Source: Candidatus Danuiimicrobium aquiferis (GTDB lineage: Bacteria > Omnitrophota > Omnitrophia > Omnitrophales > Danuiimicrobiaceae). Taken from it: a stretch of 64,000 bases of DNA. The DNA lies in assembly GCA_001804285.1 (NCBI GenBank), contig MHFR01000068.1:103230-167229 (forward strand), in the 5' to 3' direction. Under the pieces are notes generated by a model. The model saw nothing but the letters and a program-made list of their open reading frames with translations. It did no database searches and was not told the DNA's origin. Below, piece by piece: positions 8,346-48,400 of this stretch (positions within the stretch are counted from its first letter, which is position 1; each line of letters begins with the position of its first letter). A program made the position numbers and the translations under genes.

Positions 8346-8497
8346 TTTGTTTAGCGCTTTGAAGTGATTATCTATAAAAGGTCGTCCGCTTTTTTGTCAT
8401 TCCCGCGAAAGCGGGAATCCAGCAACTATGGATGCCCGCTTAAAGCATGCGGGCATGACACGAACTGGCGTGTTCACCACTTCAAAACGCTAAATAG
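8346..8497. mobile_element. MITE-like element. Imperfect ~17-bp terminal inverted repeats (8350-8366 and 8478-8494) flank two internal hairpins.
   Basis: The terminal inverted repeats were read directly. The core contains the GTCATTCCCGC-GCGGGAATCC hairpin (8396-8420) and a second hairpin, ATGCCCGC/GCGGGCAT (8430-8459). The same core recurs at 37281 inside the giant ORF. Confidence 0.5.
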
Positions 8498-8543
8498 ACA
8501 CGATAAATAAGGATTGTGGGTTTAAATAAGGAAAGAAAGGAAA

Positions 8544-10364
8544 TTGATGAGAAGACAGTATTACAGGCTAAAGAGGTATCTCCAATTTTTAAATTCTTTA
8601 TCAGTGAAACCCGTTTATTTTTTGATTCCTGCCTTTTTTGCTTTATTGGCTTCATTGTTTGAAGGGATTAGTGTCGGATTGCTTGTCCCTTTGGCTCAGT
8701 CAATTATTAGCAGAGATTTTGAATCTATCCAAAATATCCCCGTATTTTCTAATTTAATTAAACTAATTCCTTTTATTTCATTAAAACAGTCGTATTTATT
8801 TTCGTTTTTGATCGGGGTTATTTTAATTGCGGCAATATTTAAAAACATTTTGCAATACGGTTCAGTTGTGTCTGGCGCCTTTGTCGTTCGACGTTTTGCG
8901 AACAATCTTAGGAAGCTCATTTTTGGCCGTTATTTGAGTTTTGGAAAATTATTTTTTGATCGAAATAACACCGGCCAACTTCATCATATCCTCATGGCGT
9001 TCACACAGGAGATTGCGGCAAACTTGTTGGAATTGGTCCATATGCTTAATTCTTTATTTATGATGGTTGTATATTTAGTGATTATGTTTTTAATTTCTTG
9101 GAAATTAAGCTTGATTACTATATTTTTGTTTCCTGTTTTGCACTTTAGTTTGGAGTGGATTATCAAAAAAGTAAATATTGCTTCAGAGGCATATGCGCAG
9201 TCTCAGAAAGCGCTTAGTGAGAAGATTTATAATGTCCTCTCGTGTATCCCTCTCGTTAAATCGTATGCCTGTGAGGCGGATGAGTCGAAACGCTTTGGAG
9301 AAATGAGCAATTCAGTGGAATGCTTGCAATTGAATATCGATCGAAAACATAAGCTTATTCAACCTTTGCAGGAAATTATCATGTTATTGGCTTTTATTTT
9401 ATTAATCATTGGAATGGCTTTTATGATGATGACGAGGGCGGAACATCGTTCGATCGGTAGTTTTTTAATTTTCTTTTATGTGATTCGCCGAGCATCTAAT
9501 TGTTTTGGTGTGGTTGAACGGATGCGTTCCTCTATGGCTGTCGTTCGCGGTGCGCTATCTTCAGTCGCTAAAATATTTGACGATAAAGATAAACATTTTA
9601 TTCCCAACGGGACGGTGATTTTCGATGGAATTAAAAAGAATATGATGATTGAAAATTTAAATTTTGCTTATGATGAGAAAATCCCTATTTTAAAAGGGAT
9701 GAATCTTACGATTGAAAGAGGGAAAATGGCGGCGATTGTCGGCCCAACAGGTGTCGGGAAAACGACACTTATTCATTTGATGATGCGTTTTTATGATAGC
9801 ATGCCCGGCGAGATTAAAATTGATGATATAGACATACGCGAGTTCGATCTAAAGTCCCTCAGAAATAAGATTGCAATCGTAAGCCAGGACGTGCATTTAT
9901 TTAATGATACCATCCGAGCAAATTTAATTTACGGATTGCCACGGGAGGTAGGTGAGGATGAACTGGTTGAAGTAGCCAAAAAAGCAAGGCTTTATGAATT
10001 TATTGAAAAATTGCCACTGCAATTCAATTCATTCGTGGGTGACCGCGGAGTCCGTCTGTCAGGGGGTGAGAAACAGCGGGTTTCCATAGCCCGAGCGCTT
10101 TTAAAACACGCTGATATTCTCATTCTTGATGAAGCGACAAGTGCGCTGGATACCGCTACTGAGAAATTGATCCAACGAGCGATCGAAGAGTTGATCTGCG
10201 ATAGAACCACCATTGTTATTGCACATCGGCTTTCAACGATTAAGAATGCGGACAAGATAGTTGTGATGGAAGGTGGTGCTGTAGCTGAAGAAGGAACTCT
10301 TGAGGAATTGCTTAAGCGGAAAGAGAAATTTTATCGTTATTGGGAAGAACAAAAGTTTTATTAA
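8544..10364 (+). CDS. Fused TMD-NBD ABC exporter (MsbA/PglK-like), a candidate lipid-linked glycan flippase.
   Basis: Six N-terminal TM helices are followed by Walker A (GPTGVGKTT), the ABC signature (LSGGEKQRVSIARAL) and Walker B (ILILDEATSALD). The gene is embedded among glycosyltransferases. Confidence 0.88.
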   Translation: MMRRQYYRLKRYLQFLNSLSVKPVYFLIPAFFALLASLFEGISVGLLVPLAQSIISRDFESIQNIPVFSNLIKLIPFISLKQSYLFSFLIGVILIAAIFKNILQYGSVVSGAFVVRRFANNLRKLIFGRYLSFGKLFFDRNNTGQLHHILMAFTQEIAANLLELVHMLNSLFMMVVYLVIMFLISWKLSLITIFLFPVLHFSLEWIIKKVNIASEAYAQSQKALSEKIYNVLSCIPLVKSYACEADESKRFGEMSNSVECLQLNIDRKHKLIQPLQEIIMLLAFILLIIGMAFMMMTRAEHRSIGSFLIFFYVIRRASNCFGVVERMRSSMAVVRGALSSVAKIFDDKDKHFIPNGTVIFDGIKKNMMIENLNFAYDEKIPILKGMNLTIERGKMAAIVGPTGVGKTTLIHLMMRFYDSMPGEIKIDDIDIREFDLKSLRNKIAIVSQDVHLFNDTIRANLIYGLPREVGEDELVEVAKKARLYEFIEKLPLQFNSFVGDRGVRLSGGEKQRVSIARALLKHADILILDEATSALDTATEKLIQRAIEELICDRTTIVIAHRLSTIKNADKIVVMEGGAVAEEGTLEELLKRKEKFYRYWEEQKFY

Positions 10365-10369
10365 TTTAG

Positions 10370-11461
10370 ATGACCATGAAAATACTTGCGCTTGTGACGG
10401 ACGCTTTTGGCGGCGAATTCGGGATTGCAGAATACAATCGCTGTCTTTTAGAGGCGATGGCTGAGGTAAGTGAAGATGCTGAAGTTATTGTTTTGCCGAG
10501 GTTGAAACAGAGATTTGCGAGTGAAATTCCGGGGAGAATTTCGCAAAAAGATGTGATTTCGAATAAATTTCTTTATGTCATCAATGTCATAAAAGTACTT
10601 TGCTTGGACGGTCCATTTGACCTTGTTTTTTGCGGGCATATTCATCTATCTTCAACTTCAATGTTTATATCAAAAATTTTCAGAATTCCTTTTTGGATTC
10701 AACTGCACGGTGTTGAAGGATGGGAGAAACACGGCTTTTTTCAAAAACTTGCGGCGAATTGTGCCGATTTGATTTTATCGGTAAGTCAATATACGAAGGA
10801 GAGATTTTTACAGTCAGTTCCTATTAGCTCGGAAAAGGTCAGGGTTCTCCCAAACATGGTGAGAAAATGTTTTATTCCTGGGGTCAAGCCTGTTCAATTG
10901 CTCGAAAAATATGGCTTGAAAGATAAAAAAATTATTTTGACGGTCGCCCGGCTCGACCGGAAAGACCGCGACAAAGGAATTGCGCTTATGATTGAAATCC
11001 TTCCCGAGCTTATTAAGCATTTCCAGGACTTGGTTTATGTTGTTGTCGGCGATGGGGACGATCGTAGCTATTTGGAAAGCCTGTCAAGAAAGCATAATGT
11101 TTCAGCATGCGTTGTTTTCGCAGGGAAGATAACAGAAAGAAGTTTGCCCGATTTTTACCGGATGGCGGATCTTTTTGTTATGCCAAGTACCAAGGAAGGT
11201 TTTGGGATCGTCTACCTTGAATCGATGGCCTGCGGGATTCCTGCGATAGGGAGCGGGGTTGATGGGAGTCGCGACTTATTAAAGCATGGTTTAATAGCAG
11301 GATCTGCCGATCAAGGAGCTTTGTGCCGTTTGATTCTACAAAAATTAAGCGAAGGGCATTTGCCTGATTTTTTAATGTCGGAACGGATCCACCAGGAATT
11401 CGGAAGAGAACAATTTTTAAGCCGTGTAAAAAAAATATTCCATGAACAAAGGCTGATTTAA
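10370..11461 (+). CDS. Glycosyltransferase family 1.
   Basis: It has the GT-B C-terminal motif (FVMPSTKEGFGIVYLESMACGIPAIGS). Confidence 0.8.
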   Translation: MTMKILALVTDAFGGEFGIAEYNRCLLEAMAEVSEDAEVIVLPRLKQRFASEIPGRISQKDVISNKFLYVINVIKVLCLDGPFDLVFCGHIHLSSTSMFISKIFRIPFWIQLHGVEGWEKHGFFQKLAANCADLILSVSQYTKERFLQSVPISSEKVRVLPNMVRKCFIPGVKPVQLLEKYGLKDKKIILTVARLDRKDRDKGIALMIEILPELIKHFQDLVYVVVGDGDDRSYLESLSRKHNVSACVVFAGKITERSLPDFYRMADLFVMPSTKEGFGIVYLESMACGIPAIGSGVDGSRDLLKHGLIAGSADQGALCRLILQKLSEGHLPDFLMSERIHQEFGREQFLSRVKKIFHEQRLI

Positions 11462-11477
11462 TAGAATTGCCACTATC

Positions 11478-12977
11478 TTGTTTGATTGGAGCAATATGAG
11501 AATAAAAAAATACAAAATGTCGCAATTCATAACAACGATTATTATAGGGTTTTTGCTCAATATTATTTTCATTCGTTATGCGTCAAAGAACACGGGAGCG
11601 ATTAATAGTTCCAATCTGACAGAAATTCAGTTTCTATGTATTCTTGCCGCCATTGCTGCCATTTTTGGGGTTTGGAATTGGAGGCTTAATGTCAAGTTTG
11701 TGCTTTTCTTGTTGTTATTCGAGGGTGCGTTAAGAAAATGGGTTTTTTTATCTTATTCTTCGAGCATTTATATGGCAAAAGACATATTTATCATTTTAGC
11801 GTATTTGGGATATTTTTTCTCGTCTTTGAAAAATAAGAAAAAAATAAAGATAAAGATGAACTTGACAACATGGCGCATTTCAAATTATTTATTGGCCGTT
11901 TTTCTGCTTTATGGAATTGTTGAATTATTCAACCCGCGAACGCCTGTTTTATTAGGCCTATTTGGATTTAAGGCTTATTTTCTTTATATTCCATTAACAT
12001 GGTTAACATTTCAAATGTTTGAAACTTCGGAAGATCTCATCAATTTCTTGTATCAAATTCTGCTTCTTGCGATTCCAATGGGAGTTCTAGGCGGGATTCA
12101 GTTTTTTGAAAGTCCATTGCATCCATTGAATCGTTATGCGGCTGAGGGAGTGATCGCTACCTTTGGGGCCGGGGGAAAAGCGAGAGTTTCGGGCACGTTT
12201 GCTTTTGTGACGGGGAATGGCGTATTTTTCTTTTTTGTTTTTTGCCTTGTTATCGGATTCATTATTTATCGTAGGAATAAAAGCCTTAAGATGATTCCGA
12301 GTTTAATCGTATTAATATTTTCGGTCGGGAATATATTGATGACAGGGTATCGTGCCTATGTTTTACAATCGATTGTTGCAACAGTCTTTTTCTTGCTTTC
12401 GTTGATTGCCGGTTCGATAAAATTTATTCGGGCGCATTTCTTGAAAATGGTAATCGTCATTGCAGTCATTGGAATTTCTTTATCGCGTTTTTTTCCGAAC
12501 GCGCTTGAGATGTTTCAAATGCGGTTAGATAGCTTAGGTATGGAAGATCTATCGGATCGAGTGAAGGAGAGTACAAGATTTCCTTCGGAAGAAATGGAAT
12601 TGGCGGGTGGTATTGGGTTTGGGTTAGGTTCAACCCAGCATGGAAAGGACGCAATTTTAGATAAGATGGGAATAAGTACGGATATTATACCAACCGGCAT
12701 TGGATACGAAGAAGAACCGGAGCGAATTATGCTTGAATTAGGTTCGGTTGGTTTTTCGATTTATTATTTGTTCCGGGTATTTATATTAATTGGAATGTTT
12801 AATCTGCTCAAATTGCTTTTACGATGCGAGACTTATCCCATTGCCTTTGGTTTATTTATGTTCATGTTGTTGAATGGCTTGACGCCGCTTGTGTTTAATC
12901 ACATTTTTAATGTTTTATTTTGGTTCTCAGCAGGTGTGATTCTTGCCCTTTATCAATTTAATCAACAAAAAACCTGA
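11478..12977 (+). CDS. Polytopic membrane protein, possibly an oligosaccharide repeat-unit polymerase or ligase (Wzy-like).
   Basis: The 499 aa ORF has about 10-12 hydrophobic helices, sits in the glycan locus and carries no enzymatic motif I recognise. Confidence 0.5.
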   Translation: MFDWSNMRIKKYKMSQFITTIIIGFLLNIIFIRYASKNTGAINSSNLTEIQFLCILAAIAAIFGVWNWRLNVKFVLFLLLFEGALRKWVFLSYSSSIYMAKDIFIILAYLGYFFSSLKNKKKIKIKMNLTTWRISNYLLAVFLLYGIVELFNPRTPVLLGLFGFKAYFLYIPLTWLTFQMFETSEDLINFLYQILLLAIPMGVLGGIQFFESPLHPLNRYAAEGVIATFGAGGKARVSGTFAFVTGNGVFFFFVFCLVIGFIIYRRNKSLKMIPSLIVLIFSVGNILMTGYRAYVLQSIVATVFFLLSLIAGSIKFIRAHFLKMVIVIAVIGISLSRFFPNALEMFQMRLDSLGMEDLSDRVKESTRFPSEEMELAGGIGFGLGSTQHGKDAILDKMGISTDIIPTGIGYEEEPERIMLELGSVGFSIYYLFRVFILIGMFNLLKLLLRCETYPIAFGLFMFMLLNGLTPLVFNHIFNVLFWFSAGVILALYQFNQQKT

Positions 12978-12988
12978 TAAGTGAAAAT

Positions 12989-14158
12989 ATGAACGTCTTG
13001 CATGTGATCCCTTCCGCGGATATCCATCTGGGTGGGCCTGTTAATGTGATTAAACCAATGCTCGCCGCATTAATTTCGTTAGGGATTCGGATTGCGTTAG
13101 TTGCTACTTCGCCTGCAAGAGGAATTGACAACTGCTATCCTTGCGAAGTTAAATATCCAGTGTATAAGTTTCCGAGCATATTGGGGCATCAGTGGGGAAT
13201 TTCGCCGGGATGTGCAAAATGGTTAAATGAGCATGTCCAGGATTATGATTTGGTGCATATACATTCAATTTTTACTTTTACAACGTTAGCAACAAGTCAT
13301 GCCTGTCAAAAACGAAAAGTTCCCTATTTAATACGTCCTTGTGGGGTATTGAGTTATATTGGGCTCCATCAAAAACAATTTAAAAAGATGCTGTATATGA
13401 AATTGTTGGAGAGAAATAACTTAAACAAAGCATCTGCTATTCATTGCGCATCGGCATCCGAGGCTGAGGCTGTTTCGCGGTGGGTGCCCTGCCGGAAAGT
13501 TAAAATTGTTCCGCTGGGAACTGCCGAACCGCATCTCTTAGCCAGCCAAGCGACATCACCTTTTGAATCACTGAAAGCGGGTCGGAAACAACCGATTGTT
13601 TTTATGAGCAGAATTGCTCCCGGGAAGGGAGTTGAATTGTTAATAGAAACAGCAGATATTTTAAGAAAAAGACGTTCGGATTTTATTTTTGTCATTTGCG
13701 GAAGCCAAAACTCTCTTTATGAGAGGCGGCTAAAAAAGATGATTTATGATAAAGGTCTTTTAATGTACTTTAAATTTTTGGATTTTTTGGATGGCCCTTT
13801 GAAATCACGAGTATTACAGGACGCCGTATGTTTTGTATTGCCATCGATAAACGAAAGTTTTGGTGTTTCCGTTATTGAGGCAATGGCATGCGGGGCTCCG
13901 GTTGTTATATCAAAACAGGTTGGAATTGCTGAGCAAATCAGTGCTTCGGGGGCTGGGCTTGTCGTTGATTGTAATCCGAACGAGTTTGCGAATGCTGTCG
14001 AACTTTTGTTGGTTGATCCTCAAAAACGTTTATTGTTTGCAGACCGGGGGAAAACGTTGGTGAGTGAAAAGTTCCGTTGGGAAAAAGTAGCTCCTCAGAT
14101 AGTTGACATGTATCGCGAAATATTGAATGAAAAAGGCGGAAAGGTGACCGATGCCTGA
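12989..14158 (+). CDS. Glycosyltransferase family 1.
   Basis: It has the GT-B motif (FVLPSINESFGVSVIEAMACGAPVVIS). Confidence 0.8.
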   Translation: MNVLHVIPSADIHLGGPVNVIKPMLAALISLGIRIALVATSPARGIDNCYPCEVKYPVYKFPSILGHQWGISPGCAKWLNEHVQDYDLVHIHSIFTFTTLATSHACQKRKVPYLIRPCGVLSYIGLHQKQFKKMLYMKLLERNNLNKASAIHCASASEAEAVSRWVPCRKVKIVPLGTAEPHLLASQATSPFESLKAGRKQPIVFMSRIAPGKGVELLIETADILRKRRSDFIFVICGSQNSLYERRLKKMIYDKGLLMYFKFLDFLDGPLKSRVLQDAVCFVLPSINESFGVSVIEAMACGAPVVISKQVGIAEQISASGAGLVVDCNPNEFANAVELLLVDPQKRLLFADRGKTLVSEKFRWEKVAPQIVDMYREILNEKGGKVTDA

Positions 14159-15002
14159 CCTTTCGGTGATTGTAATTACCTATAATGAAGAAAAAAATAT
14201 TGAAGCGTGTTTGAAAAGTGTGCAAGGTTTGGCTTCGGAGATTTATATCGTTGATTCGTTCAGCAGCGATGGAACACTATCGATCGCAGAGAGATACAAG
14301 GCTAAGGTTTGCCGGCATGAATTCAAAACGCATGCGTGTCAGTGGCAGTGGGCCTTGCAACATTTACCGTTACAAACGGAATGGGTATTGGCGCTTGATG
14401 CCGATCAAAGATTGTCAAATGAGCTTCGGGATGAGATTTGTTTGTTTTTCAATCAAAACATTTCAGATTATGACGGGATCTATATTAACCGGCGCAATTA
14501 TTTTTTCGGTAAATGGATCCGGTATGGTGGATACTATCCAAAATATATGCTAAAACTTTTTCGGCGCAGCAAGGTTTTTATGGATCCATCTGAGTATGTT
14601 GATGCGCATTTTTATTTAAATTCCGGAAAAGTTCTGTGCCTTAAAAATGATTTAATCGAAGAAAATTTAAAAGACGATCGGTTAGCCGTATGGATTGATA
14701 AACATAAAAAATATGCCAAGTTGCAAGCCCGTGAAGAATATGAGGTCACATGTTCAGGGGGGCGGAAGTGGCCTGTTGAGCCCAGAATGGCTGGAAATCC
14801 AAATGAAAGGACCCTGTGGTTGAAAAAAGGGTGGTACGCATCACCGCGGTACTTGAGAGCATTTATATATTTTTTTTATAGATTTTTTATTCGATTGGGC
14901 TTCTTAGACGGTTTCGCTGGCGTTATTTTTCATGTTTTGCAGGGATTATGGTATCGGTTGCTTATTGATTATTATATTGGGCAAATAAAAAGAACATCTT
15001 AA
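14151..15002 (+). CDS. Glycosyltransferase family 2 with a C-terminal membrane anchor.
   Basis: The N-terminus reads MPDLSVIVITYNEEKNIEACLKSV. A DADQ motif is present and the C-terminus is hydrophobic. The start overlaps the upstream gene by 8 nt. Confidence 0.75.
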   Translation: MPDLSVIVITYNEEKNIEACLKSVQGLASEIYIVDSFSSDGTLSIAERYKAKVCRHEFKTHACQWQWALQHLPLQTEWVLALDADQRLSNELRDEICLFFNQNISDYDGIYINRRNYFFGKWIRYGGYYPKYMLKLFRRSKVFMDPSEYVDAHFYLNSGKVLCLKNDLIEENLKDDRLAVWIDKHKKYAKLQAREEYEVTCSGGRKWPVEPRMAGNPNERTLWLKKGWYASPRYLRAFIYFFYRFFIRLGFLDGFAGVIFHVLQGLWYRLLIDYYIGQIKRTS

Positions 15003-15015
15003 CAAAATTGATTTT

Positions 15016-17954: not shown

Positions 17955-17975
17955 TTTCCCGGGATTTTTCTTTAC

Positions 17976-19004: not shown

Positions 19005-19102
19005 ATGGCCGATATAAACTTGTTGAAATTATTTCTAAAATCGGCATAATTCGACCACTTAAGAAGATTAAACGAACATAAAGAGAGGGTTAAAGTAAAT
19101 AA

Positions 19103-19909: not shown

Positions 19910-19937
19910 TTCAGCGAATTTCTCTTTAATGAACATT

Positions 19938-19967
19938 TTGACCTAACCAGCCTTCATGTAATATACT
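19938..19967 (+). promoter_or_regulatory. Candidate sigma70 promoter of the feoA operon.
   Basis: TTGACC (19938-19943) is followed by a 17-18 nt spacer and ATATAC/TATACT (19961-19967). It lies about 175 nt upstream of feoA. Confidence 0.4.
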
Positions 19968-20141
19968 CTTACCTTAAATTAACCGCGTTTTTTTTGCCAA
20001 GATCGGCTACCTATGGCAGAACTTATTGCGAAAATCTTTAATTTTTCACTTTTTCTGCCACACAGCGAAGCAGTGCTGCTTCGCAGGCAAGTTGTTGGCG
20101 GATCCGCCTCTGGCGGAAACTTTTTAGGGGCGAGTTAAACC

Positions 20142-20417
20142 ATGCCTATTCGAATCAATTTGAACAAAGAATTTCTTTCCCTCGACCAACTCAAACCGGG
20201 TGAAATCGGAATGATTCAAGATTATAAGGGGATGGGTGAGATTAGCGGTCGAATTAAAGAATTGGGTTTGATTCGGGGTTCTCTTGTACTGGTTAAAAAA
20301 TATGCACCTTTTAACGATCCATTAGAAATTGTTGTCCGAGGTTCTCATTTATCACTTCGAAAGAAAGAAGCTTCTCAAATTGTCGTTATCAAAGTCTTGC
20401 CGAAGATTGAGCCATGA
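20142..20417 (+). CDS. feoA: FeoA-domain protein.
   Basis: It is a small SH3-like protein (LKPGEIGMIQDYKGMGEISGRIKELGLIRGSLVLVKK) directly upstream of feoB and overlapping it. Confidence 0.85.
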   Translation: MPIRINLNKEFLSLDQLKPGEIGMIQDYKGMGEISGRIKELGLIRGSLVLVKKYAPFNDPLEIVVRGSHLSLRKKEASQIVVIKVLPKIEP

Positions 20418-30723: not shown

Positions 30724-30832
30724 TGTCATTCCCGCAAGCCGTAGGCGGGAATCTCATGCCTTTGGATTCCCGACTACCCCGGAAAAGCTGGGGCCGGCCC
30801 TTTCTTTCCCAAGGGAAGCATTCGGGAATGAC
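30724..30832. repeat. Structured palindromic element of the GTCATTCCCGC family, in the orn-helicase intergenic region.
   Basis: It has a local hairpin (attcccgc-aagccgtag-gcgggaat). It also has a long-range inverted repeat (gtcattcccg at 30724, cgggaatgac at 30823). Confidence 0.5.
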
Positions 30833-35857: not shown

Positions 35858-36163
35858 ATGAAACCTATTGATCTTAAAAATGATGTGAAATATTCCAAAA
35901 ATTCAATTGTCAGCAAAACATTGGTTGATAAAAAGGCGGGAACGCTCACATTATTTGCCTTTGATGTCGGGCAAGGGCTAAGTGAACATAAAGCTCCGTA
36001 CGATGCTATTGTCCAAGTTGTGGACGGAAAAGGTGAATTTTTTATCGCAAATAAGAAGACAGAGGTAACGGCCGGCGAGTTGATGATTATGCCAGCTAAT
36101 ATACCCCATTCCGTTCGAGCCAAAGAAAAGTTTAAGATGTTGCTGACAATGATTAGGTCTTAA
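35858..36163 (+). CDS. Cupin-domain protein.
   Basis: The 101 aa ORF carries a cupin_2-like G(X)5HXH...E motif region (GQGLSEHKAPYDAIVQVVDGKGEF). Confidence 0.7.
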   Translation: MKPIDLKNDVKYSKNSIVSKTLVDKKAGTLTLFAFDVGQGLSEHKAPYDAIVQVVDGKGEFFIANKKTEVTAGELMIMPANIPHSVRAKEKFKMLLTMIRS

Positions 36164-36243
36164 AGCCATAAGTTGTTTGCCTGATTATAATTAAGATAAA
36201 AAAGGAATTAGGCAAAAAAACACCTAAAATATAGCCCGTTCCA

Positions 36244-36272
36244 TTGCAAAATAACACCTTATCTGGTATACT
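36244..36272 (+). promoter_or_regulatory. Candidate sigma70 promoter of the giant gene.
   Basis: TTGCAA (36244-36249) is followed by a 17 nt spacer and TATACT (36267-36272). It lies about 147 nt upstream of the ATG at 36419. Confidence 0.4.
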
Positions 36273-36418
36273 TTCTTCACGCCTTTAAAAAGGCTCACGC
36301 CAAGGTTTAAAAAAGGGTTATCAAAATTATTAATTTCTCACAGGGGGAAATTTTTTTACTTTTTTATTGTTTATTGGGTGAAGAATTTAACGAAAGGACT
36401 ATTTTGTAAATATCCTTC

Positions 36419-39400
36419 ATGGCAGGTTCGACGAAACAGTTTATCTTAAGAATTATTGCGGGCGTTACATTATTGGCATTTTCAGTCAACCAAATTGGTT
36501 ATTCCAACCCAAGCCCGACTAATTTTTCAGCCCAACCGGTTACAGAGGTTCCGCTTCCGAATCCGGGATTCCAATTTTCGATTCCTCCAGAATTGGGGAC
36601 CGTTCAAAACCTGACATCCGGGTCGGGCGGCACGATCGTTCACATTCAAACCGCGCACGGAAATTACGAAGCCGAGAAACAAATTCAAGCGATTCTTCAG
36701 CATCTTCATGATCATTACGGATTTAATCTTTTACTTCTTGAAGGCGCCGGTGTCAAACTGAAACCGGAATTACTTCAATTTTTTCCTCAGAACAAAATCA
36801 AGACGTTTGAGCTTGCCGACAAGTTAACACACAAATCGCTCATGAAGGGTGCTGAACTATTTCTCATGCGGGCAAAGCGCGCGAAAGCATTCGGAATCGA
36901 AGACCTTAAAATATACCGGAGGAACCGGCGCGCCTTTTCGAGAGTCATGATGCGGAAAAAAGAAGCCGACGGGTTTTTGGAACAAATTGACCGGGGGATT
37001 AAACATTTTTCAGCTTTGTATTTGAATAAAGAACTGAGGACATTTTTAAATGAGTCGGAAGATTATGAAATGGGCAAGACGCCGCTTTTAGCATGGATCC
37101 GGTCGCTACAAAAAAATGCGGAGATTTTTTTAGATCTGGATTTATCCGATCCGAAAAATCAATTTCATTGGCCGATGACGCTTCGCCTGTTGAAATTGCA
37201 GGAGCTTGAGTCAAAGATTGATACGGAAAAGCTGGCGGAGGAGAAACGGAATTTTTTAAAGAAAATAAAACCTTTATTTGTGTCATTCCCGCAAAAGCGG
37301 GAATCCAGAATGATGGATCCCCACTTTCGTGGGGATGACAAGCAGTCTCGGATTGCATCGCCAATGTCCGGGACGACGGCTCGCAATGACGGCCGTCAGA
37401 ATAGGGGACAGGCAGTTCATCTGCCTGTCCCCTATTCTGGCCTGTACACCCAAATCGAATCCTTGCTCACGTCTCCCGCAAATATCCAGAATGAATTACC
37501 GGATCCCGAAACCGGACTTCTGTTCGAGAGGATGGCATCAAAACTTCCGAGGAATTTTAATTATCGCATGTACCCAAACCTGAATTATTTCATCGGCCGG
37601 TTAATTCTCCAAAGTGAAATTAAGGGGGAACTGTTACTTGCGGAAACCAATCATCTCGAAGAGTTGATTGTGAACCGCTTAGCGCAAAAAGAAGACGAAA
37701 AACAGCTTATGGAATTGCTCCGCGATTTTCATCTTTTAAAACGGTTATTCGCTTTAGCGCTTACGCCGGAAGATTACGAACAAATGACGAGCGATATCGT
37801 CCGTCATCCTGAGCCCCCAAAGGGCGAAGGATATGAGGAAAAGAGATTCTTCGCACTTCGCGCTCAAAATGACAGATTTCGTCCGAGAAACATGCTGCAA
37901 TCTTTTAACGCTTTAAACAAGGATAATCATGTTCAGAATTTACAAGTTGCTGGAATAAAAGATATCGATCTGCTCTATGAATCGGCTCTCGAATTTTATC
38001 GAATAGCGAAAAACCGTGATTGGGAAATGCTCGAAAATATTCAGAAGCGGATGAATCGGCTCGGTGAACGAAAAGCGATTGTCATTACTGGCGGTTTTCA
38101 TGCAACACCCTTCAAGAATTTCTTTTCTGAACACGGATATAGCTATGCGCAGGTTCGCCCCAAAATTTCCTCAACGGACGGATTCCAATCCTACATCGAC
38201 GCCATGCTTCAAAAATCCACGCTCGAGTCCCCGTATGTTTTCAGTATTCCGCCGGCAGAATGGATAAGGCACGGAATCAATCCAAGTTGGGTGAGACAAC
38301 AATTTTCTGCTGCGATGCGGGGGATGGCGGAGCGAAATCGGTCTGAAACGCGAAACAAAACAGGTTTACAAAAAGGGGACAGGCAATTGCTCAACAGGAG
38401 TCATATGCCTGTCCCCTTTTTGACTGACCAAAGCGCGCAAGAGTCCTCGATACGTTCCAAGGAGCATGTATCGAGGGCCGAAGCGCGCGGAAGAGAAGTC
38501 ACCAGTCGCCAGTCACTGGTCAATAGTGTTCCAGTGTCTAGTGATTTAGTATTTCAGGTAAGGGCTGAAGATTCCCGCCAGGGGCATGCGGGAATGACAG
38601 TAGAGCTCCATCGCAATGACGGTGCGTCAAGGGCCGAAGTCCGTCAGACGAAACAGGCGGAAATTGATACCCCGGCGTTTTATGCGGAATTGCCTAAAGC
38701 GCAATTAAGAAAAGTGGCATTTGCAATTCAGTTTTTGTTTGAAGATTCGTTTGCATGGCTTCCTCACGAAAAAACAGACATCAGCATCCCCAATATTGAG
38801 TCCGAACTGAAACGTTTACCGAATTACAAACTTAGGAACGAAGAAGAACTCGAGCGGATGCTTCCCAAACTGCGCCTCACAAACAGGGCAGCGCTTGTAC
38901 AATTTCTGGCGGTGTTAGTTGCATTGTTTGACAAAAAGGATGAAGAACGTGAGGCGGCGGAAAAGGCTGTGACGGAAACGGCTGAGGTGAAAAGCATAGA
39001 TGCTTCTACAGATGTTTCTCCTGAAGCGAAAAAATCGAAGTTATTCCATTTCGCTTTGCGTTTTATGGGGTTGGAAGAGCTTGTGCGATTTCGGACGATG
39101 AGGCGGACGAGCGGAGCGAGTAAGGAAGAGGAGAGGGCAGAAGATAAAAAAACGGATGCTTCGGTTGAAGCAGGTGAAGGAAAAGAACCGGATCAACCCG
39201 TTGACCGGCGGCCAACGAACGAAAAAGACGCTGCATTTTATACTCGAGATCTATATTTAACAGGCGGGCTGTCCCATCAAAACGCCTTGTCTAAAATTCT
39301 TGCATATCTTAAGGCCGGAATCGGTGATGTTGAAAGTGATTTGTTAAGGCAGCCGGTGTCGGATGTCCTTAAAACCTATGAGGATGATTTTCATCAGCGG

Positions 39401-42400
39401 GTTTTGAGCAGGGAGAAAATGCCATATTTTCAGGAAGTGGTTCCGGGTTTTGAGTGGCGCACTACCGTCCGGGATTTTCTTACATTGCATTGGAACCGGA
39501 TTCATTGGCCCGTTGTTTTATATCGTTTTATAGGATCGGATCCGGGCCGTTTTTTATTTTCAGCGCCTGTTTGGTTCATGATCGGTTCCTTTATCGGAGG
39601 GCTGACTGTCGCCGCTGCCTTTGCCGTCATTGTCAGGTATGTCTTGCGGCCGCTCTATGAAGGCGTGCTGTTTAACTTGGAAGCCAAAGCGATGAAACGC
39701 TATCGCGCAATGGCGTATGAGCCTTTTCCATACGGCCCGCATTTTATTTTTCAAGGAGATGATCTTTGGCGGAATGTCCGTCAAACCTATTTTCAAAGTG
39801 AATCGCTGATGCTTCCTAATGAGAAAAGTAATTCAGTCTTGAAGCTTTATGCGTTGGAACATGTATTGAAAAAATATCCTGGAACAAGGAAATATCGCTC
39901 CATTGTCCGTCGAGTGCGTGAGAGATTGTCATCCTCGTCTGAGTGGCCTGATATTCATGATGCGTGGACGATGGTTCATAATGCTGCAGTGCGCCAACGA
40001 ATTCAGATGAGTGATCCGGGCGTTAAGCTTATTCTTTATGTTCTTGAATTACCGGTAAGAGCGCCGCCGGCGACAGAAGCCCAAAGTCCACAAGGAAGGC
40101 GCAATTTTTATCAGCGATTGGTGCTGTTGATCCGCCGTTTGATTTTGATTGCTATTCAAAATGCAATTCTTCAACCCTTCCGGATATTGAGATCGTCTGT
40201 CTACTCTTTGAATTTGCGCGCAACTGCCCGGTTGATTGAGAAAATCGAAAATCGCATTAAAGCGTTTTTTAAATATCCTATCCGGGAATATTCAAGTGAA
40301 ATGTTCTCAAGCCGCAGCAATACGCAGGTTAAGAGTGTCATGGGCCTCCCTGATGAAGAGAAACGAAAACAAGAACTCATTCAATACTTAAAACAATTCA
40401 ACATTTCCGAGCTTGATCCTTTGATTGCGGAAATAGATCAAAGGCTCCATCTGAAATTCGACCGGTTTTTTGACAAGGAATGGTTCTCTCAAGCATTTTG
40501 GAATACGTTAACGGGGAACAGAGTTGTTTCCAATAAGAAAAGGAAAAATAAGAGCGAGGAAGCTATTGCTGAAAAACTTAGAGTTTTAAACGCACAATAT
40601 GAGTTTGATTTAGCCAATCACACGGTACTCCTCAATACCGAAATGCCGCTTTTTCTGAATGCGTTCATTTTGGTCAAGTTGGCCTCTCAACTTTATCAAC
40701 ACCATGTTGTGCGCGGAGAACGGGAAAATATCCATCTTCCTCCCGAAGAGTTGGAAAGCATTCCGAAGAAAATGTTGATGAAACTTTTCTGGGATGCGTT
40801 TAGAAACGGTAAGAAATATTTTAGTGACACGAAACAGCCGTATATGGGCAACTTGGCGATTTTTATCCTGATGATGGTGAAAGCGTGGGGTTGTAAAGTT
40901 TACTCATCGAATGACAAGCCGGGGATTCTTTACATTAAAACACATCGCATTACGATGCGTGCCATGATCAAGGCTAAAGAAGGGTTTGTTATCGGGAGCC
41001 ATTATCTTTTAGGAAAACGTTATCTTGGGATTACAAATCAAAAAAATTATCCTTTGGCAGAAAAAAAACACGGAGTTAGCAAGAAATTAAGTGCCGTATA
41101 TTCTATCCTTAAACCATTTTTTCCGATCCTCTCACAATTTGCCTGGATGCTGGGCTATTTGACTGCGGTGGTTGCGCTATTTAGCGGATTTTTTCTGCAC
41201 CTTGATTTAAGTTTCGTGATGCACTATTTGGATCAACTTATTCAGTGGCTGTCCACCATTGATTTTTTTGATATTGGGCCGATGATTGCGGCGATCTGGC
41301 ATTCAATTCAATCTGCGTACCATGATCTTGCGGCTGCGTTCAGCCAGATCCTTCATTATTTATTCGATATTGATCTGACATGGCTGAAACAGTTTTTCCA
41401 TGACCTGTGGCAAAGCCTTGAGCCTGTCCGTGCGTTTGTTGAAGATTATCTGGTGCCGTTTTTTTATCAATTTCTCGTACCCGCCCTGATTTTTGGATGG
41501 GGAATGATTTCCGGATTTCTTGCTTATAAAGTGCAATTAAGACAAAGGTTAATTCAAGTGGGAGATTACTTTATCTCTTTCGGAGCTCCAAAGTTGATTG
41601 CCTGGTTCATAACGGTTCCCGCTGTAATAGCTGCAACAACCCTGAATTTGAATACGGATAAAATTTTTGAATTTCGGGAACGGATTGAATCCGCACTTCA
41701 GACGAAATACATCGTTAAACCATTAAGTTTGATTTGGCATATGTTGGCCAATCTATTGTATGCAGGTTCTTTTCTCTTCGGCGTTGGTCTTTACTTTTTT
41801 ATGATGTGGCTGATTATTGATCCACAGCTTGGATTGTCGGGTTTAGCGGGCGGATTGCAGAGCTTAGGTTTGCCGGTACCGCCGATTGTGTTAATTGCCT
41901 ATGTGGCCGGCGTTGTTAGTCTTCCTTTTTCTTTTGTGTATGTTGTCTCGGATTTATTGATGAAAAAATTACCGGAACGCGGATTGTTTTCGGGCCGGCG
42001 AACTGTGTGGGGAATGATTGCGTTTTTGGGCGTGTTTGCCGTGATTACGCCGGTGGCTTTGAATTATACATTTCGTTCAAATTGGATGCGGTCAGATTAC
42101 GTTGCGAAAGAAAAGGCCAGGACGCTTTATGCAAAGCCGAGTATGGTTTATCACTATAGTTTGATGGGCAAAGAAGAGGCAAAGTTGAAAATTGAAGAAA
42201 TGAAAAAGGAACAAACTCAAAAAATTGAAGAAGTGAAAAAGGAACAAACTCAAAAAATCGAAGCGTTTAAAGCACAAATAGAACAAGCAGCGAGTCAACC
42301 GGCATATCCGTCAACGATAAGCCGGTTTAAGAAAAAAATAGAAGAGTTTTTTAAGCAGGACGACAAGAAAAAAAAGGTGAACGCGGTTGAAAGCAATAAA

Positions 42401-45400
42401 ACCGCAGAAGATATGCAAGCCTTCGTCCATTTCTTTTTCGAACGATTTTATCGATTTCAGAAGTATAAGGGTATGGAAAATATTGTTGATCCGGAAAACG
42501 GCATCCTGCTGGTCAAGACTATAGACGAGTTGAAATTGCATAAACAGGATATTTTGACAGCGATACAAAATAAGAATCGCGCAGTATATGGCAATATGCT
42601 TTTTTGGGAAGGACTATTCCGAACATTTGCTGTAAACGGTCCTGGTTTTTATGATGCGTTTACACCTGACGAATGGAAAACCGTTCTCAATCATGTTTTT
42701 GATGTGTTGGAGGGGAAAGTGCATTATCGGCATTTTCGCCAGCGTTATTTTGAAGAGAGGAAAGCACTCAATGTTATTGATTATTTTCTGTGGGGTAATT
42801 TATCGAGCTTGCACCGATTGCATCTTTATTTTGAGGGTGTTGGGACGGTGAAAGGCGATTTTCAGAAAGTATCCATTCTCTATCTAATGATGGCTGATAG
42901 TCCGTGGGGGTATGTTTTCCCAAGTGCGGATCATTTTACCGTATTAGATCCCGATCGTTCGGGTCTATATCTATCATTTTTTGAAGATCCGTCGATTGCG
43001 GTGGGGATTCCGGAAAATCCTTGGGCAAAATCCAATTCTAAGGGGGGGCTTCCTACTGCAAAAGCACCGCGTGTTGCCGTAAACGTTTCACCGGAAATTC
43101 GGAGTTTAATGGTTGAAACGATTGAGCGCCTTGTCAAAACAAAAACAGGGGATCAAGATGTTCAGTCTTTTATTTATTCCAGAAACCTTTGGTTTAATGG
43201 ACACAATACTGCCGATTTTTTGAAATCAGATCTGTTAAAGCAGGCTGCTCCGGTGAGGCCGAAACCGCTCAGCACAAAACCTTACACAACAACCAAGCCG
43301 GCAGAACGATCCGGAAACGTTCAGAGCCAGGGGCGGGCTGAAGTGCGCAATGTCACGCCAAAAACGGGGACAGGTTCTGTATCAGTGAAACCAGAACCTG
43401 TCCCCGTTCTGGCGAGGGCTGAAACTCGCGACGAAGCGTTGGGAGGGCGAGTGAGCGTGAAGGAAGAAGATGTCTTTAAAGGATCGAAACTTCTTAAATG
43501 GCTTGGTGCCGCGTTTTGGGGGTTGGGTTGTGCGGCGTTTCTTTATGGCGCATACGGCGTTATTTCGCTTTCGGATCTTTTTGTTTCCTACTTGCCGGTG
43601 CTTCTTGAGGGCTGGCTTATTATTGGAACTGCCGTGCTTGTCAGCCATTACAAAAATCAGTTGCAATATTGGACGCGGCTTTCATTGATGACCGGTGCAA
43701 CCGTGTCCGTTTTCTTGCTCTTTCACAAACTCGCCGCTTACTACTGGCCGGTGTTTGGTTTGAATCCCGACATAAAGCTGTCAACAAGCATGATCGTCCG
43801 CTTGCCATCTATCTTTTGCGGAGTTTTTATCAACGAGTTGATTCGGGTAAAAAGATTTTTTAATTTCGAATTCAAATTAGGCTGGGAAGAAGCGAAGCCC
43901 CATTTTATCAAGGCATTTAAATGGGCGATTTCTTACGGAGCGATTACGGGATATTATTTTTATGTTGTTTTGTACGGCTTTATCGGACCGTATATTCCAC
44001 AGGCGAATTATTTTCCGATGATGACACCTGATATGGGGACGGCGATGATGAAAATGTTTTTTGACCTCGCGGTGACGACGCCCCTTGTCAATATTTGGAC
44101 CGTAAGTGCGGTTAGTGTGGCCTTCGGAGAAGAGGTGGATGTTGCCCAAAATTGGAGAAACCAGCTGGAGGGTTTTCTGTTATTTTATCCTTTAACATCT
44201 CTTTATTGGATGGTCGCGCTTTCTATATCATGGTTTCTCTTCCCGGATGGCCTGGATGGTTTTCAGGCCTCTCATGCGCTTTTTTCCACTCTTTGGCAGA
44301 TAGCATTGCCGGTATTTATTGTTAAGTTTTATATCGGAAACGGAAAACGCGGCAAGTTGACCGGTCAAAAGCCTGCTCCGGTTCCTCATCTCATATGGGA
44401 AAACCAATCGGTTTCCGCAATATCCCGCAGAGTGGACGTGCGTCCCAAGAACGCAAACACAGGAATTACGGTAAACCGCAGCCATCTTCGTGCTTTGGCA
44501 ATCAATATGGTATTTGCCGGAGGAGCTGTGGCGGATAAAGCGGCTCAATGGGCGCTGAGTAAAACATTGCCTGTAGCGGCGAAATTGCTTTGGCCCGGAA
44601 AACCGCGGCGATCAAAGACGTCAGACCGTTCCGAAGTTCGCAACAATGAAAATAATGCCAAAACGATTGTTGATCGAGGCGAACAAGAGTCCTCGATACG
44701 TAGAGGGCTTGTATCGAGGGCCGAAGCGCGGCAGGAGGAATATGAAGTCGCGAGTCAACCGGCGGCTCCACATATCAGGAATTTGAAGCAAGTAGTCACT
44801 GATGTTCAAACAGCGGTTTCCGAACTCAATATTCGCGGCCTGGAGGTTTTTGTTTTCGGTTCGCGGGCAAATGGGAAACCAAGGGATGGTAGCGACTTGG
44901 ATTTGATCGTTTTAGTTTCCGAGACCATGGATCAGGCTGCTGCCATGGCGATTATTTGGCAAAATGATGAAATTGAAAAACGACTTTCAGAAAAGCTTAA
45001 AACAAAAAGAGATTACCGTGTGCAATTTCACGATATTAATCCGGCAACCCGGCGGCACTATTTTTATTTGTGGAAGACTCGACAGTTTTTTAAAAAAAAT
45101 ACCTATCTTTGGTTTGTTCAGGCAAATTCAATTCAAGGGTTTGAATTGCATGCAGATGGAGTTGTTCCGGTGGATCTTGATCGACTGGAAAGTTTAACGC
45201 CGCTGCCGATCAATCTTGCGAACGATATAGCAGGCTTATCTCCTGAACAATCTCGGAGTGAAACGCGGCAAATGGGATTCGCAGAAGAGGACGAGGAAGA
45301 CTCTGACGATGACTTCATGCTCGATGGTGAAGACCTGGATATAATGCCTGGCGAATTTTCAGTGAAGCCCCAACCGCCTTCCGGGGCTGCCAATCAATTG

Positions 45401-48400
45401 AGTGGCGGCAAAGAAGAAAAAAATAAGGGAAAAAGATTTCCAGCGGCGCGTCCTGATGATTATCCCTCTCCGGTTCGATCCATCATTTCCAGTGGACTTA
45501 AAATTGACGAGGACACCTCGCTTCCTTCTGCCCGACGGTCCGAAGTTCGCCTCAAAAAAGATAGTACAGAAGCGATGCTTCATCAAGGCGCACGAGTGTC
45601 CTCGATACATCCCAAGGGGCCTGTATCGAGATCCGAAGCGCGCAACATTTTACAAAAAGGGGACAGGCATATGACTCCTATTGAACAATTGCCTGTCCCC
45701 TTTTTGACTGACCAAAGCGAACGAGAGTCCTCGCAGTTGCGGCGAGGGCCAAAGGATGCCGCTGCGAGGGCCGAAGTTCGGTCGGATTTCAACAACGCGA
45801 CAGATGAACAAATCATGACTGCGCTAAAACAAATCGGGTTATCCGAGCGGCAAACCCGGAACCTTTCCACTTATCTTTCGAAAATCAAACGCGTTTTGGC
45901 ATCGGGCCGGCGGTTTCGATCGCATGAAGAACTCCGCGTATTCATGGCGGGTGTTTTGGGGGTGCCTGAATTGGCGGCGAAATTCGCAGATCATTTCTTT
46001 GAAAAGTCTGCTTCTCAGCCTGCGGCAAAGCCCAACAAAGCTCCTTCAAAATCATTTCAATTTAATAGAACAGTTGAACAGGTGATCGGCAAGATGCCTT
46101 TTAGCGTGAATGTTTTGTCAGGTCCGAACAGGAAAAAACTTTATGACGGAAAATACGTTCCCAATGTTGTTCAGGTTGCCAGCCTTGGCGTGAGAGAAAG
46201 AATAGCAGCAAGGCACATCGTCTATTCTAAATTTCTTGATGTGTTGGAAGAGTATACACACCTGACAGAAGCAGAATTGCTTCATATGGGTTTTGTCTAC
46301 AGGCAGGGACCTTCATCTTTATATCTTTCAGAAGTGGTTCGTCCTATTCTCCAATCAACCGGAGCAAGTCATGAAGCGCAATCGGCTTTGGCTCCGGCTA
46401 TTCTGGAAATTGCCAAAAGCATGCGCGAAGCCAAAGCGCTCAGCGGGGATGAAGTGCTTAAAGCCATTTTTTCTAATTTGGGTGGGATCGATGGACAATT
46501 CAGCCAGCTCATCGCCTATTTGAACCACATTCAATTTAACAAAGGGAAAAATCCGCGGCTGAAAGTGCCGGATGAGAAAGTACAAGAAATAAAATCCATT
46601 GGTGAAGTGGAAGAGATAACGATTTGGTTTGTTAAAGCCGGGTTCCTTACGAGTGTCGCAATGGCAGAAGTTAAATTCAAAAGTAGTACAAATCGAGCGC
46701 CCATTCGTTTTGCGATTAATGTCGCTAACGATAGAACGATTTCCGCGGAGAAAGTGAGGAATGCATATCGTCATATGCGAGCTGATTATGATTTAGATTC
46801 CCGGTTTGTTGCTGAACCGATTGGGTTGGGAACCGAGATTGCGCCGGTGATCATCAGTGAGTGGGTCGAACAGAGTGACGAACTTCATTTGTATGCGGAT
46901 ACCGGATTTCAGCAATTCCAGGTTTGGAGCGGCCAAAATATGCACAACAACCAAAAAGTTTCGCTTCAGGACTCCCGGAAAATTTGGCGACAAATTATTC
47001 AGATACAAACGATGTATTCCGGGGTGAGGCCTGACGGTGCCGGGATGTCACGGCCATGGATCAATCGCGGGGATTTTGTGCTGACGCGTGATTCGCAAGG
47101 GGAACCGCGTGTTGTATTAATTTGGGATGACAGAAGTAATCTTGTTACGGGACAGAAGATTCCGTGGGACGCTATTGATAGCGTTGTCAACAGTTTGATT
47201 TGGGGGGAAGTTGACCCGGACAGCGGAAAATATATTTGGGCAGATGATCCGGAATTAGCGATTCGAGCGATTGAAGACGGGTATTTAGAGCATAGGCAAG
47301 ATAAGATGGAGGCGAAAGCTGAACTGATCGAAATTCTTAAGATGGTCTATAGAAATAGACTTCCTGAAATTATTAGGCAGCCTTCTGTCATTTCGGCGGG
47401 TTTTGATGATTTTGATCCTGCTGAACTGGATCATTTTATTTCTGTCGCTAAGCATGCACACAAAGTGCTGGGCGAATTTTTGCAGCAACGTTCTGAAGTT
47501 CGGGAAGAATCTTTTGCGGTTGACGGTGAAAAAGACCTCACCATTGAAGAAATCGATGCGCAAATGAAGACGGACGGCTTTCCGGAAATGGAATGGTTAT
47601 GGAAGACATTCAAAGGGATGAAAATATGGAAGGGCGTAAAACTCCGGCGTATCAACTTAGCCGATATTGATCCCGGAAAAATTCAAGAGATGCGCACCAG
47701 GCATATGGGCGGTTTATTGGCGCGTCCTTTGGTCATGGCTTTGATGTCGGTTTCCATTATGTGTATTGCACTGTCCGTTTTTATGCTTTCCGTTTCTGCT
47801 CTGCAAGATGTCATGCTTTCGCTGCAGGGCTATCCTGTGGGTGATTGGCATAGTTTCTGGAAGAATAATGTCGAACCGATTTTTCGGATGTTTCGCAATC
47901 CGCTGATATGGATGGCGCTTTTATTTTCAACGCCGGTGGTTTTTTTGCCGGCAACGGCAATCAAGCGGGCGTTTCTGCTGTCCTGGAAGAAAATTTCCGC
48001 ATTGGACCTTGCGTTTATGTTAAGCAAACGGAATTACCGGGAATGGTTCGAGCAGACGCCGGGGGCGCAACAAACGGTCGCCAAACTTCGCGGCATGGGA
48101 ATCAATGAAAACTTTGATAATCCTGATTATGCTCGCCGCTATCGCGCCACGACCAAAGGTGTTGTGGAAGTGCCGATTCCTGCTGTCCCCAACGTTCATG
48201 CCGTTCTGAAGGAGGTACTCGGGGAAGTGCGTGATGGAAAATACGAGCGGGGCAACTACACGACCAGTCTAAAACACGGAAGGAAATCCGTGACGGCTTT
48301 TGTCGCGCAGAATAAAAGGGAGGTTGAGCTCAGCAAGCCGCCGAGGCCCAGGTATGCGTGGCCTATCCCTACGTTCATCGGCTTGCTCATGGGTTTTTAT

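Follow-up and report, generated by a model that had tools for sequence, protein, structure and literature searches.

Palindromic hairpin elements with pairing-constrained stems in intergenic spacers and in frame within a giant open reading frame of an Omnitrophota bacterium

The window analysed here is a 64,000-nt stretch of the Omnitrophota bacterium Candidatus Danuiimicrobium aquiferis (contig MHFR01000068.1 of assembly GCA_001804285.1, positions 103,230 to 167,229), and our subject is a set of hairpin-forming palindromic elements within it, which we group into classes A, B and C, together with the giant open reading frame (ORF) that hosts most of them. The first 36 kb of the window hold ordinary + strand genes (glycosyltransferases, an ABC transporter, FeoAB, Dus and others), a tRNA scan returned none, and the rest of the window is taken up by a single frame:

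36419–64000, + strand: giant ORF, starting with ATG at 36419 and running past the window end, at least 9,193 codons without a stop

This frame is a genuine giant gene, such as have been reported from Omnitrophota (10.1101/2023.11.21.568195; 10.64898/2026.06.07.730766), because it stays open, contains in-frame Pfam domains (the nucleotidyltransferase NTP_transf_2, HAD, HD_5, a methyltransferase and TPR) and has homologues of its N-terminal 640 aa that are annotated as Candidatus Omnitrophica. Its last 1,200 residues in the window (60398–63997) gave no match in a 5.8-billion-protein collection, not even to themselves; the giant protein is thus absent from that collection, and no homologues of that part are detectable there. 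A near-perfect 33-nt tandem duplication (KIEEMKKEQTQ twice) lies at 42188–42253 of the same frame. Within the window, three members of the hairpin families occupy intergenic spacers (8396, 27511 and 30725) and all others lie in the giant ORF; the ordinary genes contain none.

An earlier note on this DNA had cited a handful of hairpin stems with paired substitutions as a sign of selection on nucleic-acid structure. The cited stems are all present, 1–3 nt from where the note had placed them, and all ten elements whose folding was compared with dinucleotide shuffles gave z = −2.9 to −10.2 (fold z in the lists below). Class A is found at five loci, two of them intergenic (8396 and 30725) and three in the giant ORF (37282, 38571 and 52597):

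8396–8460: class A doublet (REPIN-like), intergenic, GTC-ATTCCCGC-gaaa-GCGGGAAT-ccagcaactatgg-ATGCCCGC-ttaaagcat-GCGGGCAT-GAC; fold z = −5.6
30725–30832: 108-nt intergenic element with termini GTCATTCCCGC ... CGGGAATGAC and internal hairpins
37282–37340, + strand: class A doublet inside the giant ORF, translation VSFPQKRESRMMDPHFRGDD; fold z = −7.3
38571–38598, + strand: single class A hairpin inside the giant ORF, ATTCCCGC-caggggcat-GCGGGAAT-GAC, reading ...HAGMT
52597–52651, + strand: class A doublet inside the giant ORF, its first stem replaced by ATCCTCCGG/CCGGAGGAT, its second ATTCCCGC/GCGGGAAT; fold z = −4.2

The class A consensus is GTC-ATTCCCGC-N4-GCGGGAAT-CCAG, often arranged as inverted doublets, and the first hairpin with its flanks reads GTCATTCCCGC-N4-GCGGGAATCCAG. 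Seven inverted doublets of 54–96 nt, with stems ATTCCCGC, ATGCCCGC, ATCCCCAC, ATCCCCGC, ATCCCCGA, ATTCCCGA and ATCCTCCGG, were found in the window and its relatives, and the minimum-energy fold of the doublet at 37282–37340 is one long hairpin of −36 kcal/mol. With up to 2 mismatches, ATTCCCGC-N4-GCGGGAAT occurs three times in the window against 0.05 expected. The giant ORF of a relative (L275) contains copies of the 30725 element that are 88% and 81% identical to it. Class A is a hairpin of the repetitive extragenic palindromic (REP) type, including its doublet form (REPIN): window positions 8399–8419 (ATTCCCGCGAAAGCGGGAATC) are identical in stem and 3' flank to the 21-mer REPIN master sequence of Neisseria, ATTCCCGCGCAGGCGGGAATC, which is associated with a Group 2 REP-associated tyrosine transposase (RAYT), and the loop alone differs. 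The exact class A 27-mer is present in more than 120 IMG/VR viral contigs, and also in replicons of Azospirillum, Neisseria, Sphingopyxis, Sphingomonas and Photobacterium.

Between the second hairpins of the 8396 doublet (ATGCCCGC at 8432–8439, GCGGGCAT at 8449–8456) and of the 37282 doublet (ATCCCCAC at 37317–37324, GTGGGGAT at 37329–37336) two positions differ and both are compensated, as the earlier note had claimed. Its statement that the elements lie inside coding sequence holds for the other cited copies, all in the stop-free frame 36419–64000, but not for the copy at 8396–8460, which is intergenic between ORFs 7412–8329 and 8544–10364. The larger class A set was drawn from the window and a further 1.15 Mb of retrieved loci; it comprised all sequences with at most 4 mismatches over the 16 stem positions, weighted alike, and held 187 unique copies without a mismatch, 16 with one (single-sided) and 76 with two. 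Among these last, 58 carry one fully compensated Watson-Crick pair, against ~2% under independence (p ~1e-79, or 4e-11 by type), and the compensated pairs are of 11 distinct types at six stem positions. When each distinct stem was counted once, there were 8 compensated cells in 5/8 pairs against 0.9 ± 0.8 after shuffling (reached in 0/500), and controls with the partner slid out of register collapsed. Compensatory changes are reported to be common in REPINs (PMC3116915), and stem mismatches impair cleavage by TnpAREP in vitro (PMC8266576).

Class C is a cassette of 90, 93 or 102 nt with two helices, of which H1 lies at the 5' end and H2 close to the 3' end, and is represented in the window by the following copies:

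38421–38488, + strand: 3' two-thirds of a class C cassette, fused behind a class B hairpin, H2 CCTCGATAC/GTATCGAGG plus GGCCGAAG
44626–44733, + strand: full class C cassette between RSEVR and RAEAR, H1 GTTCGC (44636)/GCGAAC (44679), H2 CCTCGATAC (44691)/GTATCGAGG (44711); fold z = −3.0
45535–45645, + strand: full class C cassette, H1 GTTCGC (45545)/GCGCAC (45588) with one mismatch, H2 from 45600/45623; fold z = −3.1
45705–45783, + strand: class C variant, H2 CCTCGCAG-tt-GCGGC / GCCGC-TGCGAGG with CCTCGCAG at 45729 and CTGCGAGG at 45762, outer pairing CGAAC/GTTCG
61105–61215, + strand: full class C cassette, H1 GTGCGT (61115)/ACGCAC (61158), H2 CCTCGATAC (61170)/GTATCGAGG (61193); fold z = −2.9

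The earlier note had given one class C stem at 38444, 44689, 45598 and 61168, and this stem is intact at 38445/38468, 44691/44711 and 61170/61193, but the copy at 45600/45623 has 8/9 pairs and one C-A mismatch. The variant reported at 45727–45770 is real, at 45729/45762, but belongs to a separate sub-family with a longer, interrupted stem and did not arise as point substitutions in the common one; its covarying sister copy in the relative L267 reads CCTGGCAG-tt-GTGGC/GCCAC-TGCCAGG.

A metagenome scan with a class C pattern that was fixed at the outer stem bases and in the 3' flank and free elsewhere returned nine stretches, of which seven lie in stop-free giant ORFs of 4–14.7 kb from three JGI samples (the stretches L268 and L275 being the same sequence) and two are chance matches. 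Iterated nhmmer brought the set to 19 full class C units plus partial ones, whereas the remaining 2.3 Mb of retrieved loci, other Omnitrophota included, contained none; class C is known only inside giant ORFs of this lineage. The cassette keeps to a single site, strand and phase, all 19 units lying on the sense strand in one codon phase, for which random placement among open frames gives ~1e-8. Stop-codon filtering was rejected as the cause of this uniformity, since the other frames are often open. In the homologue P0001, a protein of ordinary size (1,055 aa) encoded on L276, two RxExR sites lie 44 residues apart (6411–6560) with CGAGAGAGTCCACGG between them, resembling the class C core CGAGAGTCCTCG; here a gene that is not giant may hold a cassette that has diverged.

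H1 pairs G-Y-K-C-G-Y with R-C-G-M-R-C ~37 nt downstream, its 5' arm starting at the last G of a Glu-Val junction (GAA-G) and spanning the V/A and R codons of the 5' peptide motif described below. In an 18-copy alignment H1 is 97% paired, with 3/6 pairs covarying (UA10/CG7; GC9/UA5/CG1; CG9/UA9), and 7/9 pairs of H2 covary. The stem sequences of H2 vary widely (CCTCGATAC/GTATCGAGG, CCTCGC.../...GCGAGG, CCTTGGCG/CGCCAAGG, the L267 stem given above and TTTGAATGTTTC/GAAACATTCAAA), and despite these very different sequences the H2 segments have z < −2 in 18/18 copies. Pairing across class C reached 88% against 71% in 500 shuffles, compensated cells 53 against 19 and the score 0.50 against 0.20, none of the shuffles attaining the observed values; sliding the partner by 1–3 columns reduced pairing to 49% or less, and RNAalifold recovered the same two helices unaided. 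An alternative in which the middle arm pairs with the 3' motif, and not with the 5' one, was set aside, as it showed no covariation. The stems are under structural constraint. The earlier note's view that paired changes mark a constrained nucleic-acid structure even within coding sequence is borne out in independent, larger copy sets of both classes, and in neither of them are stem mismatches as frequent as matched changes, the outcome that the note had named as telling against it: in the larger class A set the 58 compensated doubles stand against 16 single-sided changes and the controls collapse.

The site at which class C resides is defined by a short peptide. Across 27,632 residues of giant ORFs (window 36419–64000, L267, L268 and L270–L273), R[AS]E[AV]R occurs at 84 sites against 0.2 expected from composition, rising to 93 when T or I is allowed at the fourth position; the residue at −1 is mostly small (A, S, P or G), and 77/79 nucleotide matches to the motif are in frame, with only 2 antisense. 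About 92 RxExR sites are known, of which 56 have no cassette. Among these solo sites each of the six codons for Arg is represented, as are both families of Ser codons, and it follows that selection acts on the peptide itself. Class C cassettes are flanked on both sides by R[AS]E[AV]R, supplying their own VR codons at the 5' end and their own RAE codons at the 3' end. At cassette 3'-end sites the codons are almost always AGG GCC GAA (18/23 and 21/23; solo sites, 12/56 and 14/56; p = 5e-6 and 9e-8), the last Arg there resembling that of solo sites, and at 5'-end sites the last Arg is CGY in 17/17 against 27/56 solo sites (p = 4e-5). From this codon usage at the 5'-end, 3'-end and solo sites we conclude that the cassette begins directly behind the GAA-G of the host and extends to the end of its own ...AGGGCCGAAG; it ends in ...GGGCCGAAG and carries AGG-GCC-GAA-G at its own 3' end, so that the motif stands on both sides. 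Consecutive motifs are 21–65 residues apart in 27/86 cases and ~140–660 residues apart in 43/86, the rest being scattered, and the sites flank Pfam domains, as with the HD domain at ~4770–4930 between sites 4616 and 4945. R[AS]E[AV]R may serve to separate modules or to mark sites of processing, and its spacing together with the flanked domains suggests that it delimits the modules of a polyprotein. Because the motif is so far in excess of expectation and about half of its spacings fall at 140–660 residues, it is a testable candidate cut site of giant Omnitrophota proteins or transcripts. No relevant report of RAEVR, RSEVR, RAEAR or RSEAR was found in the searchable literature.

The elements are discrete units that have been copied and inserted relative to homologues. 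When the N-terminal domain of the giant ORF is aligned with eight homologues, the block 37282–37439 (a class A doublet, a GTCATTGCGA-type remnant and a class B hairpin) is absent from five of the eight, and the segment matching the element at 37803–37873 (aa ~455–490) is absent from most. P0001 has a different palindromic family at the same two loops; these loops are permissive sites that have been hit independently. One contig carries two class C copies that do not differ at any of their 102 nt (100% identity) and whose flanks become unrelated exactly at the cassette limits. Between the window and its relatives, the host ORFs are no more than 40% identical in aa sequence, over short domains, or share nothing; the elements are 80–100% identical at the nucleotide level.

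Inside the giant ORF, the same nucleotides satisfy both pairing and translation. The conserved 5' arm of H2, GAGTCCTCG, is read in two frames, as ESSI or SPRE depending on the copy, and the class B core likewise as QKGDRH or PKTGTG. The 3' arm of H1 encodes residues that are unrelated from copy to copy, yet remains complementary to the 5' arm. One H2 sub-family has CGT in place of AGG for Arg in its 3' motif, and the opposite arm has changed to match. Since the same arm nucleotides are read in two frames and the H1 3' arm encodes unrelated residues, the constraint on the stems cannot be at the protein level.

Class B hairpins and further palindromic families occupy the same territory, and we list them here:

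37341–37396, + strand: remnant of another palindromic family (...GGCTCGCAATGAC), between the class A and class B elements of the same inserted block
37397–37439, + strand: class B hairpin, 19-bp perfect stem CAGAATAGGGGACAGGCAG / CTGCCTGTCCCCTATTCTG; fold z = −10.2
37803–37873, + strand: 71-nt element GTCATCCTGAGC...GCTCAAAATGAC, second in-frame insertion in the N-terminal domain
38369–38422, + strand: class B hairpin, 17-bp stem and 20-nt loop, 100% identical to L270 6215–6268; fold z = −9.2
43334–43429, + strand: single-hairpin cassette, 81 nt, RAEVR, B-type hairpin AACGGGGACAGGTTCTG / CAGAACCTGTCCCCGTT (43363–43408, read PKTGTG), RAETR; fold z = −7.8
45653–45706, + strand: class B hairpin directly 3' of RSEAR
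51323–51415, + strand: class B hairpin (51323–51376), then a truncated class C 3' end (GTATCAAGG TCTGAAG)

The loop at 38369 is the reverse complement of those at 45653 and 51323, so that class B occurs in both orientations, and in a second type of cassette class B hairpins take the position of H1; single-hairpin cassettes also occur. The family of the 37341 remnant (GTCATTGCGA...TCGCAATGA) is found at the equivalent loop of P0001 as well. A two-arm pattern of the class B core, GGGGACAGGCA...TGCCTGTCCCC, is present in more than 115 GTDB contigs (L152–L266) from many phyla, in many cases as part of GGGGACAGGCACC and within longer palindromes that are particular to one genome, with several copies per genome in a Lachnospiraceae metagenome-assembled genome, Olsenella, Caulobacter and Omnitrophica RIFOXYB12_FULL_50_7. 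With hundreds of millions of hairpins in the collection these cross-phylum matches may be partly chance, and we do not treat class B as one cross-phylum family. In viral contigs the arms of classes B and C were found in 29 and 1 contigs, respectively, with one inverted pair among B, which we judged to be about chance level. A reading of class B, with its A-run, GC stem and T-run, as intrinsic terminators was rejected, because a terminator scan calls none of the B hairpins and their loops are 20 nt; more generally, a terminator or promoter reading found no enrichment, with 29 terminator-like sites in 36000–55900 against 24.2 ± 4.8 after shuffling.

Termini of the form GTCAT...ATGAC are common to otherwise different palindromic families (GTCATTCCCGC, GTCATTGCGA and GTCATCCTGAGC) at 37282–37439, 37803–37873, 30725–30832 and L276 ~5500–5640 and 5920–6040, and may represent a common cleavage or guide sequence. 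The intergenic segment 27511–27555 is a perfect 22-bp palindrome, CCCCTCACCCCGCCCTCTCCCT / AGGGAGAGGGCGGGGTGAGGGG, with a 1-nt loop and an 87% identical copy in the giant ORF of L275 (6097–6142). The spacer between the first two ORFs (950–1219) holds dense, overlapping hairpins, such as GCTTTGGGCGCA/TTGCGCCCAAAG and GTTTTGCGCCC/GGGCGCAAAA, which may be another repeat family or a terminator cluster.

We propose, as the explanation we find rather more probable than its rivals taken together, that the hairpins are several families of small non-autonomous palindromic repeats, resident in intergenic spacers and in frame in the linkers of the giant ORF, whose stems are kept because a single-stranded hairpin is needed for copying. 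The elements would fold as single-stranded hairpins to be recognised and copied, most likely by an HUH/Y1 single-strand transposase of the RAYT or IS200-IS605 kind, which is strand- and site-specific; only copies with intact stems would propagate, leaving survivors that show compensated pairs, and the reading frame would be kept by selection on the host ORF. Copying of this kind would explain the stems, the strand specificity, the short conserved sequence at the target and at the element end, and the tandem arrays. Among the candidate roles listed in the earlier note, a transposition intermediate or nicking site fits best, class A being a known REP/REPIN hairpin and class C occurring as identical copies with unrelated flanks. 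Several observations weigh against this proposal. No transposase or RAYT domain was found in the 26 ORFs scanned (window and relatives, neighbouring ORFs), and the GTAG 5' of the palindrome that is typical of REP elements (PMC8266576) is absent from class A, which is flanked by GTC...CCAG instead (CTGG on the other strand). The diversity of H2 stems makes sequence-specific recognition by a single transposase unlikely. Comparison of the window with its relatives gave no usable pair of orthologous filled and empty class C sites, the host ORFs being too diverged or non-homologous, and the fact that the 19 class C units all keep to one strand and one phase agrees just as well with a host-selected role of RNA or protein.

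Such a role in host RNA is the strongest of the competing explanations, possible in our view and on balance doubtful: the cassettes would be structured mRNA modules at domain boundaries, acting as sites of RNase processing or stabilisation, or as translational pause sites that aid co-translational folding or membrane insertion. It draws on the placement of class C and B-type cassettes, which never depart from the sense strand, from a single phase or from RxExR sites between Pfam domains, and on the helices themselves, in which G-U pairs (~6) exceed A-C/C-A (~2) and 17/18 copies retain a U-G at the base of H2, as expected if the sense strand folds; the processing of giant transcripts and proteins was moreover left open by the authors who described them (10.1101/2023.11.21.568195). 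The sense-strand bias is, however, also expected from strand-specific single-strand transposition, and a host function sits poorly with the 56 RxExR sites that do without a cassette, with identical copies in unrelated flanks and nested elements that look like selfish spread, and with the occurrence of hairpins of classes A and B between genes and across many unrelated phyla. Selection on the elements' own propagation is more likely than selection on a function in host mRNA.

Two further explanations dispense with selection on structure. Intra-strand template switching or arm-to-arm conversion could perfect quasi-palindromes neutrally, producing compensated pairs in one step, and most stems are indeed perfect, with some multi-base replacements mirrored in both arms (ATAC/GTAT vs CAGTTGCGGC/GCCGCTG) for which one templated event suffices; but the arms of H1 lie ~37 nt apart and covary in 7 combinations across H2 sub-families, G-U is tolerated more than A-C, and neither the exact conservation of the class A 27-mer across phyla nor the sharp cassette boundaries are explained, so that we regard neutral upkeep as improbable. 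That class C is purely a protein repeat, a duplicated peptide linker whose stems are a by-product of codon choice, we hold to be very improbable indeed. RxExR is clearly under protein-level selection, given its excess over expectation and the diverse codons of solo sites, and unit lengths are multiples of three, but the translation of the H2 5' arm in two frames already contradicts this account, as do the unrelated residues of the H1 3' arm with pairing kept and the AGG-to-CGT Arg swaps matched in the opposite arm, and a profile of the class C unit peptide found no match among the 5.8 billion proteins. Rfam 15 gave no match at the gathering threshold across the whole window, the element regions at E <= 1 attracting only generic miRNA-precursor hairpins far below threshold. 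A self-cleaving ribozyme (no Rfam match), an integron attC site (end motifs direct, not inverted) and CRISPR (no regular array spacing) were rejected on these points alone, and a diversity-generating retroelement was also set aside.

Compensated stems in REP-like repeats and in-frame palindromic insertions, the latter as Rickettsia palindromic elements (RPEs; PMC10969869), are already known. New to the searchable literature are the presence of such elements in frame in a bacterial giant gene with neighbouring ordinary genes spared, and a site- and phase-specific cassette at a linker-peptide coding sequence, constrained by pairing, frame and motif together. Class C offers a clean natural example of overlapping codes for RNA or DNA structure and for protein. 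A bolder and quite tentative idea, which we think unlikely as it stands, is that class C and B-type cassettes are an undescribed selfish element that homes, on one strand and in one phase, into R[AS]E[AV]R coding sequence and rebuilds the peptide on both sides; if true, it implies that the giant ORFs are polyproteins. If RxExR were a proteolytic site, cleavage would remove the inserted peptide of 27–34 residues along with the linkers, and an insertion would cost almost nothing, in analogy, at the level of the protein, to an intein or intron.

Four known systems invite comparison. The host ORF resembles the giant genes of Omnitrophota (Archaeovorin-type or multi-enzyme giant proteins) in being stop-free over more than 27 kb, along which enzyme and TPR domains are dispersed, but the papers describing those genes (10.1101/2023.11.21.568195; 10.64898/2026.06.07.730766) do not contain the words 'palindrom', 'hairpin' or 'linker'. 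RPEs are palindromic repeats of ~50–150 nt in open ORFs that add short peptides at permissive sites (PMC10969869), and in-frame insertion is likewise evident here against homologues in a frame open for more than 9,193 codons; this likeness is one of description. RPEs are, however, scattered over many ordinary genes, whereas here ordinary genes are spared and giant-gene linkers are the habitat, and a site-, strand- and phase-specific element at a peptide-motif coding sequence, such as class C, is not described for RPEs.

Members of the IS200/IS605 family insert strand-specifically as single strands beside a short conserved sequence and have hairpin-bearing miniature derivatives. Class C may be comparable to these derivatives: it has two hairpins, H1 at the 5' end and H2 close to the 3' end, and a single orientation (19/19) beside ...CCGAAG, with the element also ending in CCGAAG and no obvious target duplication beyond. 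It differs in lying exactly in frame, as 30–34 codons, and in an H2 stem far more variable than expected for one cognate transposase, and no TnpA was found in the DNA examined. Compared to the REP/REPIN elements of Neisseria, which are mobilised by RAYT/TnpAREP, most copies here are intragenic and in frame rather than extragenic, the host is an Omnitrophota bacterium, and no RAYT gene was seen in the DNA examined. The likeness is nevertheless close, as class A shares the stem and flank of the master sequence, is present in many copies in many bacteria, forms inverted doublets able to fold as one long hairpin, and shows compensated stem changes as reported for REPINs (PMC3116915).

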